From NCBI GenBank assembly GCA_000092065.1, contig CP000590.1: a stretch of 64,000 nt of DNA. One strand, 5' to 3'. The notes under the pieces were generated by a model. The model did not search any database. It worked only from the letters and a program-made list of their open reading frames with translations, and was not told where the DNA came from. Each line of letters begins with the position of its first letter. Position 1 is the stretch's first letter. The translations under genes and the position numbers were made by a program. This document shows positions 49,937 through 57,319 of this stretch, piece by piece. This DNA comes from Ostreococcus lucimarinus. Lineage: Eukaryota.

Positions 49937-51025
49937 TTAGCCTTGAAAGAATGTGTGCTTCGAGGGTTCGCTCGGAACGTATTCTATCGGCCCGACGACG
50001 ACGGCGGCTTCGGGCAACGGCGCGCCAGGTGACGGGATCTTTTGAAAGAAGACCACCTCGTTCTCTTTGACAGCTTTCGCTGCGAGTGCGGCCACACGCG
50101 AGGCGAGCTCGCCGTGATACGTCGCCCACGAGACGATTTCTCCGGAGGCCTGCGCGCAATCGCGCACGGCTTCCTCCGCGCGCCTACACGCTGCGATGAC
50201 TTCGCCGCACTCGTCCGCAGCGCGCCGCGCCTCGGCGTGCGCGAGAAATGCCTCCGCTTCGTGCGTCTTCCAAGCTACCAGCACGCCGGCCGTCAAAAAT
50301 ATGTCCACGCCGTTCCAATCGCATCGACGCGACTGCAACACCGCGTTGGCATCGCGGTACAACTCGCTCGCGCCGCGATGCAGCCGCGCGCGCAAATTCG
50401 CCGCGCTTCCGCGTTCGAGCGCTCGCCGACACGCCGCGCCCTGCGCGTCACCGAGCGAAATCAACGTCATCACCTCCGCCATCGACGCCGTGAGTTCATT
50501 CGCCACGCATTCACCATCCAACGACGCCTTCAGCGGCGGCAAAACCGTCTCCTGCAAGTGCTTGAACATCCCCGCCGCGACTCTCGCGTTCTTCGAGCAG
50601 CTCGCCGCGCCCGCGTCGCCCAATCCTCCCTCCGCCATCCGCGCCGCCGTCTCTCGCGCGCAAAGTCTTCTGTGACACGACGCGAGTCCAAACAGCGCGA
50701 ACGCGCGCTCGCCGGCCAATCCCGGCGCCGGATACGACCTCGCCTCGCGTCCGCTCTCGAGCGTCGACGCCCATCGCGCCGTCGGCCCCTCCCCGCGGTC
50801 CAGCGCCTCCAGCGCGCCCTCCGCCTCCGTGATCACGTCCACGTATCGCTCGTACTTGCGCCTTCCGACGTCCGCGTCCGCGTGCGCCGCCGCGTGCGCG
50901 CACGACGCGCGCGCGGCGTTCAACGCGCGAAGTCGTTGGAACGCGAGCGAATCCGCGGCGCCGTCGGCGACGAACTCGATCGCCTCGGGCGTCAGCGCGC
51001 GCGCGTAGTCGATCGGCAGGAACAT
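49937..51025 (-). CDS. BRO1-domain protein (BROX-like)
   Basis: From ATG 51025: AAGMFKHLQETVLPPL and KENEVVFFQKIPSPGAPLPE parallel the BROX blocks AAGIFKHLKESHLPKL and ENGFIYFQKIPTEAPQLE. The 445 codons upstream in the same ORF are R/P-rich low complexity. Confidence 0.75.
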   Translation of the reverse strand: MFLPIDYARALTPEAIEFVADGAADSLAFQRLRALNAARASCAHAAAHADADVGRRKYERYVDVITEAEGALEALDRGEGPTARWASTLESGREARSYPAPGLAGERAFALFGLASCHRRLCARETAARMAEGGLGDAGAASCSKNARVAAGMFKHLQETVLPPLKASLDGECVANELTASMAEVMTLISLGDAQGAACRRALERGSAANLRARLHRGASELYRDANAVLQSRRCDWNGVDIFLTAGVLVAWKTHEAEAFLAHAEARRAADECGEVIAACRRAEEAVRDCAQASGEIVSWATYHGELASRVAALAAKAVKENEVVFFQKIPSPGAPLPEAAVVVGPIEYVPSEPSKHTFFQG

Positions 51026-51108
51026 CTCGCGCGTCGTCGCGCGCGCGCGCGAGGGCCCGACGCGCCGTCGCGGCGCGCGGCGCGAGATGGCGTCGGACGG
51101 CGCGCGCG

Positions 51109-52260
51109 ATGCATCGAACTTTCGCCGCACCGCGACGCGCGCGCGGCGCGCGACGCGCGCGCGCGATGACGCGCGAATCACCCGCGACGGCGTCGACGTC
51201 CGCGCGCGCGTTTCTGCGCGGCGGCGCGTTCGAGCGCGCGGTGGCGACGCGTTCTTGGCCGTTTTTGGGCCTCTTCGCCGCGCGCGACGACGACGACGCG
51301 CGCGACGACGACGACGCGCGCGGCGAGGACGACGCGCGCGACGACGACGACGTCGCGAAAGTCGAGACCGTCGCGCGCGCGTCGCTCGATGGGCGCGTCG
51401 CGTACGATAAAGCGGCGTTGCTGCGACTTCGGGACGCGGCGGCGTCGAGCGGGACGCCGCCGGGCGCGACGGAGGAAGACATGCGGGCGTACCCTTGGCG
51501 CGCGCGCGTGGATGTGGGTCAAGGCGCGAGCGAGGTCGAGAATGACGCGGAGGAAGACGCGGTGACGGCGGCGGCGACGGCGAGGGTGGTGATGGAGACG
51601 GAGGCGGTCGCGCGCGCGCGGTCGGCGTGGCGCGAGCGGGAGACGTTCGAGGCGGACGCGGAACAGGCGGCGGTGGCGTTGAGGCGGGTGTTGGCGCGCG
51701 AATCGGAAGGTGACGGTGATGCGGTGAGCGAGGGTTATCGGGTGACGTTTCGCGACGGCGCCGTGCGGGCGTTCGTGCGAAAGCTGACGCGCGAACGGTT
51801 CGGCGATTTGTCGGCGGCGGATTTGGATCTTCGCGAGACGTCGCGAGAAGGAGAGACAGCGGTTTTGTACGGCACGCGAAGGCTCGCGGAAGACGGCGCG
51901 TACGAAGTGAGCGTGGCGTTCGTACATCCGTGGGATGGTGAACTCGAGCACGTGGTTTCGTGGCTCTCAAAACCGGCGGACGATTCGGAAACCGTCGTCT
52001 CGCCCGTGGGTTGGCTTCGCGCGAACGCCAGTCTCGGCGCCAGTTTACCCCCGAACGCGAAACGTGCGTACGACGACATCGCCACTGGTCGTGGCGATGC
52101 GCATGTGAACGTCTCAGCCGCGCGATTGTTTGTCGCGCTCGACGTCTCGACGAGCGCGTGCGGCCCTTTGGTGATGGAGTGTTACGATTTAGAATCGCGC
52201 GCGGGCGTAGAGTACTTCCTCGGGGGTGCCGACGCGGCGGAGCACGACGAGGATTATTAG
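51109..52260 (+). CDS. Hypothetical protein (acidic DDDDAR repeats; contains a Y-x4-L-L motif)
   Basis: ATG 51109 (or 51166). The C-terminal two thirds has ordinary globular composition and G/C-biased third positions. No family recognised. Confidence 0.4.
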   Translation: MHRTFAAPRRARGARRARAMTRESPATASTSARAFLRGGAFERAVATRSWPFLGLFAARDDDDARDDDDARGEDDARDDDDVAKVETVARASLDGRVAYDKAALLRLRDAAASSGTPPGATEEDMRAYPWRARVDVGQGASEVENDAEEDAVTAAATARVVMETEAVARARSAWRERETFEADAEQAAVALRRVLARESEGDGDAVSEGYRVTFRDGAVRAFVRKLTRERFGDLSAADLDLRETSREGETAVLYGTRRLAEDGAYEVSVAFVHPWDGELEHVVSWLSKPADDSETVVSPVGWLRANASLGASLPPNAKRAYDDIATGRGDAHVNVSAARLFVALDVSTSACGPLVMECYDLESRAGVEYFLGGADAAEHDEDY

Positions 52261-52341
52261 CGAGATAGCTCGATAGGCTTTTGCAACGTGAATGACAACG
52301 ATTATTATATGCGTGCGCAGTACGGAGACGAACATCGTTGT

Positions 52342-53616
52342 CTAGTCGTCGATACCACACTTCAAGTTGGCTGGGAGCGACTCGTCGATTTTCTTTGGGT
52401 ACGCCAAATTCAAGTTGCTCATGATTTCTACGAACTCCTCTTTGGTCTTCTTCAACCCTAATCGCGGGTTGAGCTCTTTTTCCTCACCGATCGTACTCAC
52501 CATACGCCCCTTGTAGTCGTGCGCTGGATACACGAGCGTCTCGTCGGGGAGTTCGAAGAGTTGAGTGCGCACCGAGTCGTATAGTTTTTCGCTCGAACCA
52601 CCTTGGAAATCGGTTCGACCGCATCCACGAATGAGTAACGCGTCGCCCGTGAAGACCATATTATCGCACACGTAGCTCACGCATCCGTCGGTGTGCCCCG
52701 GAGTCGCGCGGACTTCCAAGTTGATGACGTTGGAATCGGCGCCGAAAGAAATCACGTCGCCGTGCTTGATGTGCACGTCTGCGCGCGCGCCTGAAGACTC
52801 TGCGATGACGCTTTGCAGACCGGTGACTTTCGCCTTCAAATCACCGCTGCCCGTGATGTGATCGGCGTGGCAGTGCGTGTTGATGGCGTACTTGAGCTTC
52901 AAGCCCAAATCGTTGACAACCGCCAAATCACGGTCCACCATCTCCTTCAACGGATCGATTAACACCGCCTCCTTGCTCACCGGGTCCCCCAATAAGTACG
53001 TGTACGTCGAGCTCCCGCTTGTGTCGAACAACTGTCGGAAAATCAACCCTGCATCCGGGCGCAACCCCTCGCGCACGAAATCCGCCAACGGCGGCTTGGA
53101 GAAAAACTTCAAGTCCATCGCTCTCGCGCGTTGCAACGCCCCCGCCTGCGGCCATCGCTGCTCGCGAGCCTTGAACAGTATATACGCCATACTCGCTCGC
53201 GTTGCCGTCGAGCACTGCACCATCGTCGGTCGCGGTAACGCCTCCATGGCGTCCGCCAGCTTCTTCGCCAAGCCTCGCGTGAGCGTCGCGCCCTCCACGA
53301 CGAATTGTTTAAACCCATCGCCGAGCGCTTTCTTCGCCGCCGCCGGAAACGCGGCGTCGCTCTCGGCGTTCATGTATATCCACGACTTGAACTCACCCTC
53401 GCTCAGCGCTCGATCGACGTCCGCGGCGGAGAGATCGCCGACGAGCGTGATTCGTTCGCTCGAGAATTCTCGCGCGTGCGGTAAGTCGAGCGGCATCGTC
53501 CGCGTGAGACGACGCAGAAGCGCGAACGGGGGCCGGGAGACTCGAAACGAGACACCGCGAGGGTTCGTCGAGGGGCTGGATGCGAGTCGTGAGCACAGGG
53601 ACGCCGTGACGCGCAT
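52342..53616 (-). CDS. ETHE1: Persulfide (sulfur) dioxygenase ETHE1-type metallo-beta-lactamase with an N-terminal DUF442/PTP-like domain
   Basis: C-terminal half: [55 protein letters not shown]-terminal ~170 residues: ...[16 protein letters not shown], a Cys-x4-Arg loop as in DUF442-type domains. ATG 53616 with a transit-peptide-like leader. Confidence 0.85.
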
Positions 53617-53893: not shown

Positions 53894-54388
53894 CTACACC
53901 GCGCGCATCAACAGATAAATCCTATCATCGATCTCAATCTCCTGCAAATTCTTCGGATCGGCCTTCAAGTTCATCAATAATCCACCGAAGGAGATGTACG
54001 CGCTCGCGCGAGTCAATCCTCCCGCGTTTTCGTCGACCTTTTTGTAACACTTCCCGTACATCACGTACTCGTACCCATCCGCCAGCGACGGCTTCCCGCT
54101 CTGATCGAACGCGTCGTCTTCCGGAGTTCCATCCAGCGACAGCGTCGGCGCGAGCGCCAGGGAGAATCTCTGTCCGACCGTCAACGGGTACACGTCGACG
54201 TTGACGTCGATCGTGAGCTCTGCGTCGAATTCGCTTCGGCACTTGTACCTCGACACGCGATCGAATTTCTTTCCATCCGGATCGCGATCGATGACTTCAA
54301 ACATATCCTCGTACTTCGTCGCCCCCCCCGCGGTGGCTTTCTGCGCCGTCGCCGCCGCGGCGGCGGATTTCTTTTTACTTCCCGCCAT
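53894..54388 (-). CDS. RPB8: RNA polymerases I/II/III common subunit RPB8 (RPABC3)
   Basis: From ATG 54388: DMFEVIDRDPDGKKFDRVSRYKCRSEFDAELTIDVNVDVYPL...YVMYGKCYK...ISFGGLLMNLKADP. Confidence 0.9.
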   Translation of the reverse strand: MAGSKKKSAAAAATAQKATAGGATKYEDMFEVIDRDPDGKKFDRVSRYKCRSEFDAELTIDVNVDVYPLTVGQRFSLALAPTLSLDGTPEDDAFDQSGKPSLADGYEYVMYGKCYKKVDENAGGLTRASAYISFGGLLMNLKADPKNLQEIEIDDRIYLLMRAV

Positions 54389-54700: not shown

Positions 54701-57319
54701 ATGAGCGAAGACACCGAAACCTTCGCCTTCCAGGCCGAGATCAACCAGCTGTTGTCGTTGATCATCAACGTGCGTCTCGACGCCGACCGCGACCGCGCGC
54801 GCGCCGCGAACGATCGCGGCGTCGCGACGCGCATCGCGATGGCGCGTCGCGGGACGACGGCGCGTCGAACGCATCGACGCGCTCGCGACGCGAGCGAACG
54901 ACTGACGAGGAAATCGTGGATTCGAAACGATCGCAGACGTTTTATTCCAACAAGGAAATCTTCTTGCGCGAGCTCATCAGGTGCGAGGCGCGAACGGCGA
55001 CGCGATTCGCGCGCGATGGCGATCGACGCATCGCGATGCGATGGCGGCGGTTGACTTTACGCGATGACGATGCGCGCGGGCGGGCGCGGGGGGGACGGAC
55101 GCGAGCGCGCGATGCGTGAGAATTCGTTTCGACGGGCGCGCGCGCGGGCGAGGACGCGCGCGCGAGGGATGGGGTAGAAAACGCGCGATCGTGATTCGGG
55201 CGTGCGTTTTCGAGTCATCTTCCAGAAGGGTGAAGAAGGCGCGACGGCGAGGACGAGCGGCGGCGCGCGCGAGCGAGACGCTTGGACGAACGGTGTGACT
55301 GACGACGAACGGTGTGTACGCGCGAATAATAGTAACTCTTCCGATGCGCTCGATAAGATTCGATTCGAGGGCTTGACGGATAAGTCCAAGCTCGAGTCCC
55401 AACCCGAGCTGTTCATTCACGTCGTGCCGGACAAGACGAATAACACGCTGACCATCATCGATAGCGGCGTGGGGATGACCAAGGCGGATCTCGTGAACAA
55501 TCTCGGTACGATCGCGCGTTCTGGTACGAAAGCGTTCATGGAAGCGCTCACCGCGGGGGCGGATATCTCGATGATTGGCCAGTTCGGCGTCGGTTTCTAC
55601 TCGTCGTACTTGGTCGCCGAAAAGGTCGTCGTGTACACCAAGCACAACGACGACGAGGGCTACCGATGGGAATCTCAAGCCGGTGGTTCGTTCACGGTGA
55701 CCAAGGACGCGTCCGCGAACGAACTCGGTCGTGGTACGAAGATGGTGCTTCACTTGAAGGATGATCAGCTCGAGTACCTCGAGGAGCGCCGCCTGAAGGA
55801 TTTGGTCAAGAAGCACTCTGAATTCATCTCGTACCCGATTTCGCTTTGGACCGAGAAGACGACCGAGAAGGAAGTCTCCGACGACGAAGCCGAGGAGGCT
55901 GGCGAGGAAGAAGAGGGCAAGATCACCGAAATCAAGGACGAGGGTGACGAGGTCAAGGAGAAGAAGACGAAGACGATCAAGGAAGTTTCTCACGAGTGGG
56001 CCATCATGAACAAGCAAAAGCCGATTTGGATGCGCGTGCCGGAAGAAATCACCAAGGATGAGTATGCTGCGTTCTACAAGTCGCTCACCAACGATTGGGA
56101 AGAGCAACTTGCGGTGAAGCACTTCGCCGTCGAAGGTCAATTGGAGTTCAAGTCGGTGCTCTTCGTCCCGAAGCGCGCGCCGTTTGATATGTTCGACGGC
56201 AAGAAGAAGTCGAACAACATCAAGTTGTACGTCCGTCGCGTTTTCATCATGGACAACTGCGAGGACATCATTCCGGAATACTTGGGCTTCGTTAAGGGCA
56301 TCGTCGACTCCGAAGATTTGCCGCTCAACATTTCTCGCGAAATGCTCCAGCAAAACAAGATTCTCAAGGTTATCAAGAAGAACATCGTCAAGAAGTGCCT
56401 CGAGATGTTCAATGAAATCGCCGAGAACAAGGATGACTACACCAAGTTCTACGAATCTTTCGGCAAGAACTTGAAGCTCGGTATTCACGAAGATGCGCAA
56501 AACCGCAGCAAGATCGCTGAGTTGATCCGATACTCTTCCACCAAGTCTGGCGAAGAGCAAACGTCGCTCAAGGATTACGTCACGCGCATGAAGGAGGGCC
56601 AAAAGGACATCTACTACATTACCGGCGAATCCAAGAAGGCGGTCGAGAACTCTCCGTTCATCGAGAAGCTCAAGAAGCGTGGCTACGAAGTTCTCTTCAT
56701 GACCGATCCGATCGACGAGTATGCGGTGCAACAGCTCAAGGAGTACGACGGCAAGAAGCTCGTCTCCGTCACCAAGGAAGGTCTGGAGCTCGACGAAACC
56801 GAGGAAGAGAAGAAGCAAAAGGAGGAAGTCAAGGCGCAATACGAGAACTTGTGCCGATTGATCAAGGACATCTTGGGCGACAAGATCGAGAAGTGCGTCG
56901 TCTCCGACCGCGTCGTCGACTCCCCGTGCGTGCTCGTCACCGGCGAATACGGCTGGAGCGCCAACATGGAGCGCATCATGAAGGCGCAAGCGCTTCGCGA
57001 CAACTCCATGGGTAGCTACATGTCGAGCAAGAAGACGATGGAAATCAATCCGGATAACTCCATCATGAAGGAGTTGCGCAAGCGCGCCGATGCGGACAAG
57101 GGTGACAAGACTGTCAAGGATTTGGTCCTCCTCGTATTCGAAACTGCGATGCTCACCTCTGGCTTCTCCTTGGACGAGCCGACGACGTTCGGCGGTCGCA
57201 TCCACCGCATGATCAAGCTCGGTCTCTCCATCGATGAGGACGACGCCCCGGCGGTTGATGACTTGCCCGCGCTCGAGGAAGAAGTCGACGAAGGTTCCCG
57301 CATGGAAGAAGTCGATTAA
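54701..57319 (+). CDS. HSP90: Cytosolic HSP90 (3 exons: 54701-54769, 54937-54980, 55333-57319)
   Basis: Splicing yields [23 protein letters not shown]|[15 protein letters not shown]|[12 protein letters not shown]..., the canonical HSP90 N-terminus. The protein ends MEEVD. Both introns have GTGCG donors and ACTGAC branches. Confidence 0.97.
54770..54936 (+). other. HSP90 intron 1
   Basis: GTGCGTCTCG donor, CGACTGAC branch, TCGCAG acceptor. Phase 0. Confidence 0.93.
54981..55332 (+). other. HSP90 intron 2
   Basis: GTGCGAGGCG donor, GTGACTGAC branch, AATAATAG acceptor. Phase 2; restores [14 protein letters not shown]. Confidence 0.93.

Follow-up and report, generated by a model that had tools for sequence, protein, structure and literature searches.

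In the textbook picture of eukaryotic sulfide and persulfide catabolism, SQR, rhodanese and ETHE1 are separate proteins. One gene in the 64,000-nucleotide stretch of Ostreococcus lucimarinus DNA analyzed here (contig CP000590.1; hereafter the window) places an additional domain in front of an ETHE1-type persulfide dioxygenase (PDO), which raises the questions of what this domain is, where the two halves of the protein came from and what they might accomplish together. The fusion of a DUF442 domain to a PDO is already known from the bacterial protein Blh, and ETHE1 itself is well known; what is new is a fusion built on the eukaryotic ETHE1 lineage with a distinct DUF442 subfamily. A description of a eukaryotic DUF442-ETHE1 fusion was not found in the literature searched, and none of the DUF442 papers found concerns algae.

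The fusion gene and its dioxygenase half

The complete coding sequence of the fusion lies on the minus strand (52,342-53,616) as an uninterrupted, intron-free open reading frame in which 424 codons are followed by a stop, and both this reading frame and the HCHADH and CSTATR motifs quoted by the initial annotation were recovered. That annotation had also considered an intron or a stop separating the two halves in cDNA. Neither a stop nor a gap divides them in the reading frame, the fused orthologues align with the protein without gaps over its whole length, and several of the fused sequences from other algae are transcript-derived (MMETSP, EukProt), which answers the matter of an intervening intron or stop for the family as a whole. 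The protein is 99% identical to one from a public assembly (P0001) and 79% identical to its best named homologue, that of Ostreococcus tauri, for which the public names are "Beta-lactamase-like" and "persulfide dioxygenase"; no paralogue was found by tblastn elsewhere in the 64-kb window.

Codon usage and neighbors mark the fusion gene as native to the nuclear genome of an Ostreococcus-like prasinophyte. The GC content of the window is about 0.6, and the GC3 values of the two gene halves (0.79 and 0.74) are close to those of the neighboring genes (0.76-0.81). These neighbors include genes for a BRO1-domain protein (49,940-51,052, minus strand), the RNA polymerase subunit RPB8 (53,897-54,367, minus strand) and a cytosolic HSP90 (55,202-57,319, plus strand), as well as an unknown ORF. 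A gene model of O. tauri (P0008) merges RPB8 with the fusion gene, and synteny is therefore conserved between the two species.

The first 40 residues (53,497-53,616, minus strand) contain 8 Arg, 11 Ser/Thr and neither Asp nor Glu, and AlphaFold models this segment as disordered (pLDDT ~31). The model of the full-length protein has a pTM of 0.82. Judged from their composition and disorder, the first 40 residues probably constitute an organelle-targeting presequence, the target organelle probably being the mitochondrion. Extensions of like composition are found in two picoalgal relatives, P0003 and P0010, the former of which also starts with MR.TAS. The O. tauri gene models begin at the internal Met41, without the presequence, and for this reason the start codon given here for the fusion gene is to be taken as a predicted one. 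The initial annotation had treated about 170 extra residues in front of the dioxygenase as a domain; the extension is real, but its folded part amounts to about 147 residues (aa 41-187), the rest being the 40-residue presequence.

The C-terminal half (aa 188-424; 52,345-53,055, minus strand) is an ordinary eukaryotic ETHE1-type (type I) PDO, for which oxidation of glutathione persulfide (GSSH) is predicted. This assignment, already made in the initial annotation, is borne out by end-to-end matches to ETHE1 of Arabidopsis (2gcu; E 1.6e-83, 284 bits) and human (4chl; E 6.6e-82, 279 bits), as well as by the placement of this half in a neighbor-joining tree. The type-I PDO of Myxococcus xanthus (4ysb) also matches end to end (E 1.8e-74, 254 bits), the Pfam family Lactamase_B is matched with E 8.6e-18 (65 bits), and the type-II enzyme of P. 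putida (4ysk; E 2e-16) and the CstB-like 3r2u (E 4e-11) give much weaker matches. The 237 residues are 59-63% identical to the human and Arabidopsis enzymes and retain all of the metal-motif residues. The ETHE1 motifs HCHADH (His248, His250, Asp252 and His253; 52,858-52,875, minus strand, confirmed by translation) and ATPGHTDGC are present, as are the later metal-site residues in their ATPGH (His) and FTGD (Asp) contexts. In an alignment of 23 divergent homologues, His248, His250, Asp252, His253, His308, Asp325 and His366 are all invariant, and we take these residues to be the equivalents of the Fe ligands of human ETHE1.

Identity of the N-terminal domain

The segment in front of the dioxygenase (aa 41-187; 53,056-53,496, minus strand) is confidently predicted to form an alpha/beta domain of 147 residues (pLDDT 96 when modelled alone by AlphaFold), and the predicted structure has a PTP fold. 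Sequence comparisons identify it as a divergent DUF442/BLH_phosphatase domain whose homology is visible only at the level of family profiles. A direct Pfam scan of the fusion protein itself gave no match to PF04273 at E <= 1, and TIGR01244, which has a cutoff of 85.85 bits, scored only 12.5 (E 0.11); with the window's own copy being Pfam-negative, family profiles are needed to see the DUF442 homology. A homologue search with the N-domain alignment, limited by its word index, yielded 5 near-identical fragments and was not informative.

At the family level, the picture is consistent. PF04273 is matched by 10 of the 23 orthologous algal N-domains, with a best E of 1.5e-5, and the profile of the N-domain family matches the DUF442 crystal structures 3gxg (E 3.7e-5) and 2f46 (E 5.2e-5) in alignments that match up the catalytic Cys. 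When this profile is compared by hhalign with the DUF442 domain of Sinorhizobium meliloti Blh, the two align over 133 columns with 96.5% probability (E 1e-9) and with their Cys loops in register. When 1.84 billion representatives were searched exhaustively with the profile, 3033 relatives were recovered; 34 of the 64 sampled were PF04273 proteins (best E 1.2e-25), and the relative from Nostoc scores 41.8 bits against PF04273, above the cutoff of 26.1. The matches of orthologues, crystal structures, Blh and PF04273 relatives together therefore point to a PTP/DSP-like fold with a specific affinity to DUF442. The DUF442-like nature of the domain proposed in the initial annotation thus gains support from profiles, hhalign and the predicted structure, but not from a direct PF04273 scan of the protein. 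We regard the domain as a distinct DUF442 subfamily, invisible to Pfam, with a C..x.RA[GS] loop and, at its C-terminal end, an additional helical region.

The Cys-x4-Arg loop noted in the initial annotation reads CSTATR and extends from Cys135 to Arg140 (53,197-53,214, minus strand; translation confirmed). In 103 of the 120 homologues listed, the dioxygenase domain is preceded by a C-x4-R-[ASGV]-[ASG] motif, and neither Cys135 nor Arg140 varies in either alignment of divergent homologues, so that the loop is not a chance motif. CSTATR is the form present in most green-algal sequences, and it aligns with the CQTGRR loop of Blh and with the corresponding Cys loops in the crystallized DUF442 proteins; the variants CRSGNR, CKSGAR and CTSGNR, which occur in other sequences, approach the canonical DUF442 loops. 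Characterized loops such as CRTGTR and CQTGRR have Arg or Lys at position 2 and Gly at position 4, both of which are missing from CSTATR, and this departure means that activity could be altered or lost. Arg99, which ends the CRTGTR loop in the DUF442 domain of SQR from Cupriavidus pinatubonensis, is essential (PMC8533005).

Further indications come from the company that the domain keeps. A relative of the N-domain is contained in an SQR-domain-ETHE1 polypeptide of 857 aa (P0129), others stand between YeeE/YedE and ETHE1 in two polypeptides (P0151, from a eukaryotic transcriptome, and P0157), one is fused to a PDO in the reverse order, PDO-DUF442 (P0201), and still others are fused with rhodanese domains. 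Such repeated pairing with SQR, YeeE, rhodanese and PDO, whether by fusion or as neighboring genes, is indicative of sulfur chemistry. It has to be weighed together with the loop against a different reading of the domain, namely that it is a phosphatase, or a catalytically silent module for regulation or docking, and not a sulfurtransferase. The predicted structure, taken alone, is as close to true dual-specificity phosphatases as to DUF442. However, the loop is of rhodanese length and lacks one residue compared with the phosphatase P-loop, which is Cys-x5-Arg, and no conserved Asp/Glu column able to serve as the general acid of a PTP was found in the N-domain alignment. The strict conservation of both Cys and Arg speaks against a silent module, and against either version stand the profile homology, which is specifically to DUF442, and the recurrent association with sulfur-metabolizing partners. 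We therefore consider a phosphatase or a silent module unlikely and favor a putative sulfurtransferase.

Distribution and origin of the two halves

The DUF442-ETHE1 fusion is common in eukaryotic algae. Apart from Ostreococcus tauri, it is present in [Myrmecia] bisecta, Bryopsis, Prasinoderma coloniale and a record labelled "Tetra...", as well as in the dinoflagellates Gymnodinium catenatum and Kryptoperidinium foliaceum and the chrysophyte Mallomonas. All trees were built by neighbor-joining only. In the PDO tree, all eukaryotic sequences fall together, fused and unfused ones being interleaved, and the algal PDO half is placed in this clade with the plant, human and diatom enzymes with moderate support (~70% bootstrap). 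It is 59-73% identical to eukaryotic ETHE1s, among them the unfused diatom, plant and human proteins, and among the bacterial enzymes found, none exceeds 64% identity to it. Descent of the PDO half from cyanobacteria was rejected, as the cyanobacterial PDOs, which are only 49-52% identical to it, form a clade of their own with 100% support.

The initial annotation compared the protein with bacterial Blh and suggested that a bacterial-type sulfide-detoxification module might have been acquired laterally. The architectural part of this comparison is well founded. In Blh of Xylella fastidiosa, Agrobacterium and rhizobia (NF040641), an N-terminal DUF442 domain with a Cys-x4-Arg loop is likewise followed by a C-terminal GSSH-type PDO in one frame, and the blh genes of S. 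meliloti and R. leguminosarum are collinear with the algal protein in tblastn over 82% of the query, with 26-27% identity. This shared domain order, and an N-domain family that proved mostly prokaryotic in the exhaustive search, are what could be expected of a recent transfer of a Blh-type gene into the alga. The remaining evidence nevertheless makes such a transfer very improbable, and the suggestion is not supported as far as a recent event is concerned. The protein is not an orthologue of Blh: where the Blh model NF040641 has a cutoff of 625 bits, it scores 100.2, and the match is confined to the C-terminal half (best stretch aa 278-421). The whole proteins share 27% identity and the PDO halves 35%, the affinities of the algal PDO half lying in the eukaryotic clade. 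This half belongs to the ETHE1/type-I lineage, which differs from that of the Blh PDO (Blh served as the outgroup in our tree), and the two N-domains, although homologous, represent different DUF442 subfamilies. Whereas blh sits in the bigR operon together with BigR, YeeE/YedE and TauE, the algal gene is nuclear, has a presequence and lies outside any such operon, its codon usage, neighborhood and synteny with O. tauri all being native. Moreover, the fusion spans chlorophytes, Prasinoderma, dinoflagellates and a chrysophyte.

Genomes of 185,579 species of bacteria and archaea, one each, were also scanned, and the outcome argues against this kind of transfer. The scan returned 589 PDO relatives, and among the best 80 of these 589 loci no fusion with the algal N-domain in the same order was found. 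Many of the 80 bear a C-terminal rhodanese instead, and the weak N-domain profile matches within them are due to the loops of these C-terminal rhodaneses and not to DUF442. Three loci from Pseudobdellovibrionaceae (L025, L039 and L059) have N-terminal extensions of 140 residues, in which no match to the N-domain profile was found. By eye, these extensions look rhodanese-like.

The closest prokaryotic relatives of the N-domain that were identified are stand-alone proteins of about 150 residues belonging to the PF04273/TIGR01244 family. Over their full length, the proteins from Nostoc and Nostochopsis score 93 and 87 bits with the profile of the algal N-domain, as compared with 23 bits for Blh. 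In both of these cyanobacteria, represented by plasmid pANSO36B of Nostoc cf. commune and by a MAG of Nostochopsis, the gene for the N-domain relative immediately precedes a type-I PDO gene, in the same order as in the algal fusion. In front of the pair is a gene for an ArsR/BigR-like regulator. A gene for a TauE/SafE sulfite exporter comes next after the pair in Nostoc; in Nostochopsis, one ORF lies between the pair and the exporter gene. These clusters share the gene order of the algal protein, but they consist of two separate genes with an operon-type regulation and are bacterial. Stand-alone copies of the domain also exist in the red algae Rhodosorus and Bangiopsis and in the cercozoan Mataza, and the cyanobacterial gene order and these copies therefore fit an old bacterial, possibly cyanobacterial, source of the N-domain.

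It can accordingly be imagined that the two halves are chimeric, an ancient bacterial N-domain, possibly from the cyanobacterial ancestor of plastids, having been fused early to the mitochondrial-type ETHE1 of the host. The profile scores, the gene order and the red-algal copies speak for this scenario, and a PDO half that is not cyanobacterial agrees with a chimeric protein. A cyanobacterial donor is called into question, however, by stand-alone relatives from other bacteria, for instance Candidatus Sumerlaeota, which are equally close; in a neighbor-joining tree of the N-domain it is these, and not the cyanobacterial ones, that stand beside the eukaryote-like clade, the domain being short and the tree without support. 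The occurrence of the domain in Mataza, a representative of the non-photosynthetic Rhizaria, likewise counts against the scenario. We therefore put this scenario forward only tentatively, as a possible history that is more doubtful than probable. It concerns origin, and it is compatible with a mechanism in which a sulfurtransferase works with ETHE1.

Putative coupling of sulfur transfer to persulfide oxidation

Precedents for the function come from characterized bacterial proteins. In Blh, the DUF442 domain takes sulfur from thiosulfate and passes it to GSH; the GSSH so formed is oxidized to sulfite by the fused ETHE1 domain, and the two activities are coupled (PMC5823870). SQR of C. pinatubonensis has a DUF442 domain that acts as a rhodanese, and the free domain boosts PDO several-fold (PMC8533005; PMC9163753). 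The collinear alignment with Blh and the homology of the N-domains make a similarly coupled chemistry likely in the alga, and we favor, with a probability of about 0.75, the reading that the protein is a two-domain enzyme of sulfane-sulfur catabolism in which a sulfurtransferase is coupled to ETHE1, and that it is encoded by a native gene and probably imported into an organelle, most likely the mitochondrion.

According to this reading, the N-domain would shuttle sulfane sulfur between GSH and a thiosulfate or persulfide donor, and the resulting GSSH would be fed to the dioxygenase. As homology and conservation suggest, Cys135 would carry the persulfide intermediate and Arg140 would bind the anionic sulfur donor. 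The ETHE1 domain, presumably a mononuclear non-haem iron enzyme, would then convert GSSH and O2 into sulfite and GSH. The N-domain may also shift sulfur from GSSH to sulfite, giving thiosulfate and so removing sulfite. Sulfurtransferase activity, its direction, the coupling of the domains and the targeting are all features that we infer. A single polypeptide could in this way do the job of the separate rhodanese (TST/STR1) and ETHE1 of animals and plants, as Blh does in Xylella and Agrobacterium. Plant and animal ETHE1 are single-domain proteins that are accompanied by separate rhodaneses (TST, STR1), whereas the algal enzyme carries its 147-residue DUF442-like domain in front of the dioxygenase.

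With the SQR-DUF442-ETHE1 and YeeE-DUF442-ETHE1 polypeptides of eukaryote-like sequences taken into account, it may be speculated that the algal fusion belongs to an undescribed eukaryotic toolkit, a mitochondrial sulfide-oxidation pathway that has been progressively fused and in which a PTP-fold DUF442 domain replaces rhodanese. The domain would possibly be of bacterial or cyanobacterial descent, and the fusion perhaps older than its loss in land plants, animals and diatoms. This wider proposal is the less probable side of the question at present, and it is offered as a suggestion.

Many algae, including the abundant marine picoalga Ostreococcus, thus join a putative sulfurtransferase of non-rhodanese type, with a PTP fold, to ETHE1. 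The algal fusion is neither new chemistry nor evidence for recent gene transfer; it shows the same two-step architecture in eukaryotes and in bacteria, built from different PDO lineages. Standard domain annotation misses the algal DUF442 domain, and its recognition improves the annotation of algal sulfur metabolism. The protein is also a compact, intron-free candidate for studying substrate channelling from sulfur transfer to persulfide oxidation. A comparable combination of a PDO with a sulfurtransferase module exists in the PDO-rhodanese fusions BpPRF (5ve3) and CstB, and the PDO domain of BpPRF matches the algal protein at 254 bits. In these fusions the module has a true rhodanese fold and is C-terminal, whereas in the alga it is a PTP-fold DUF442 domain located at the N-terminal side.

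Multidomain chains and tandem DUF442-like proteins

Among the relatives retrieved in the database searches, P0129 (857 aa), a representative protein from the Logan assemblies, carries in one polypeptide a Pyr_redox_2 domain, a DUF442-like domain (aa 465-611) of dinoflagellate-type resemblance and an ETHE1 domain, in this order. The N-terminal Pyr_redox_2 domain looks like a sulfide:quinone oxidoreductase (SQR) and, if it is one, the entire SQR - sulfurtransferase - persulfide dioxygenase (PDO) pathway would be contained within a single chain. Three other relatives, namely P0151 (668 aa) from a EukProt transcriptome and P0157 and P0289 (568 and 767 aa, respectively) from JGI, are fusions of the DUF442-like domain and ETHE1 with a membrane domain of the YeeE/YedE type (DUF6691, Sulf_transp), and the domain content of these proteins parallels the set of genes in the bacterial blh-bigR-yeeE-tauE operon found at locus L082. 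Tandem DUF442-like domains, in two or three copies and without the metallo-beta-lactamase fold (MBL) domain, are found in P0126, which comes from an MMETSP transcriptome, as well as in P0127, P0128 and P0141.

Cyanobacterial loci

Two cyanobacterial clusters combine an ArsR/SmtB regulator, a stand-alone PF04273 protein, a type-I PDO and a TauE/SafE exporter. One of them (L081, 3545-6081) lies on the conjugative plasmid pANSO36B of Nostoc cf. commune SO-36, and the other (L035, 2049-5199) comes from a Nostochopsis MAG and has one additional ORF separating the PDO gene from the TauE gene. The DUF442 and PDO genes, separate in both Nostoc and Nostochopsis, are collinear with the algal DUF442-ETHE1 fusion. 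In the Nostoc and Stigonema loci L023, L044, L050, L060 and L068, and likewise in the tblastn match H2, the cyanobacterial PDO is the C-terminal part of a longer open frame, about 777 residues in length; these frames, the first 500 residues of which are annotated as 'FAD/NAD(P)-binding protein', are a further PDO fusion architecture.

Boundaries of the gene and neighboring frames

A public O. tauri gene model, P0008 (521 aa), presents the upstream RPB8 gene (PF03870) and the DUF442-ETHE1 gene as one, a merger that is probably a mis-annotation, and other O. tauri models start at an internal Met, leaving out the presequence. The presequence is included, with MGTA ahead of it, in the near-identical P0124 (172 aa, source 'merc'), which shows that a second assembly, from a very close strain, also contains the upstream region; the frame shift after its residues GATLTR is probably an assembly indel. 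On the 3' side, the stop codon of the DUF442-ETHE1 gene is overlapped by an 807-codon minus-strand ORF (49937-52360), most of which is artefactual. The part of it that encodes a protein, one with a BRO1 domain, is limited to the C-terminal 371 codons (49940-51052, minus strand), and its Arg/Pro-rich upstream portion is the antisense of a plus-strand ORF (51109-52260). The latter, which has Asp-rich repeats and lacks any Pfam match, is convergent with the ETHE1 gene, with about 80 bp between its own end and the 3' end of that gene.
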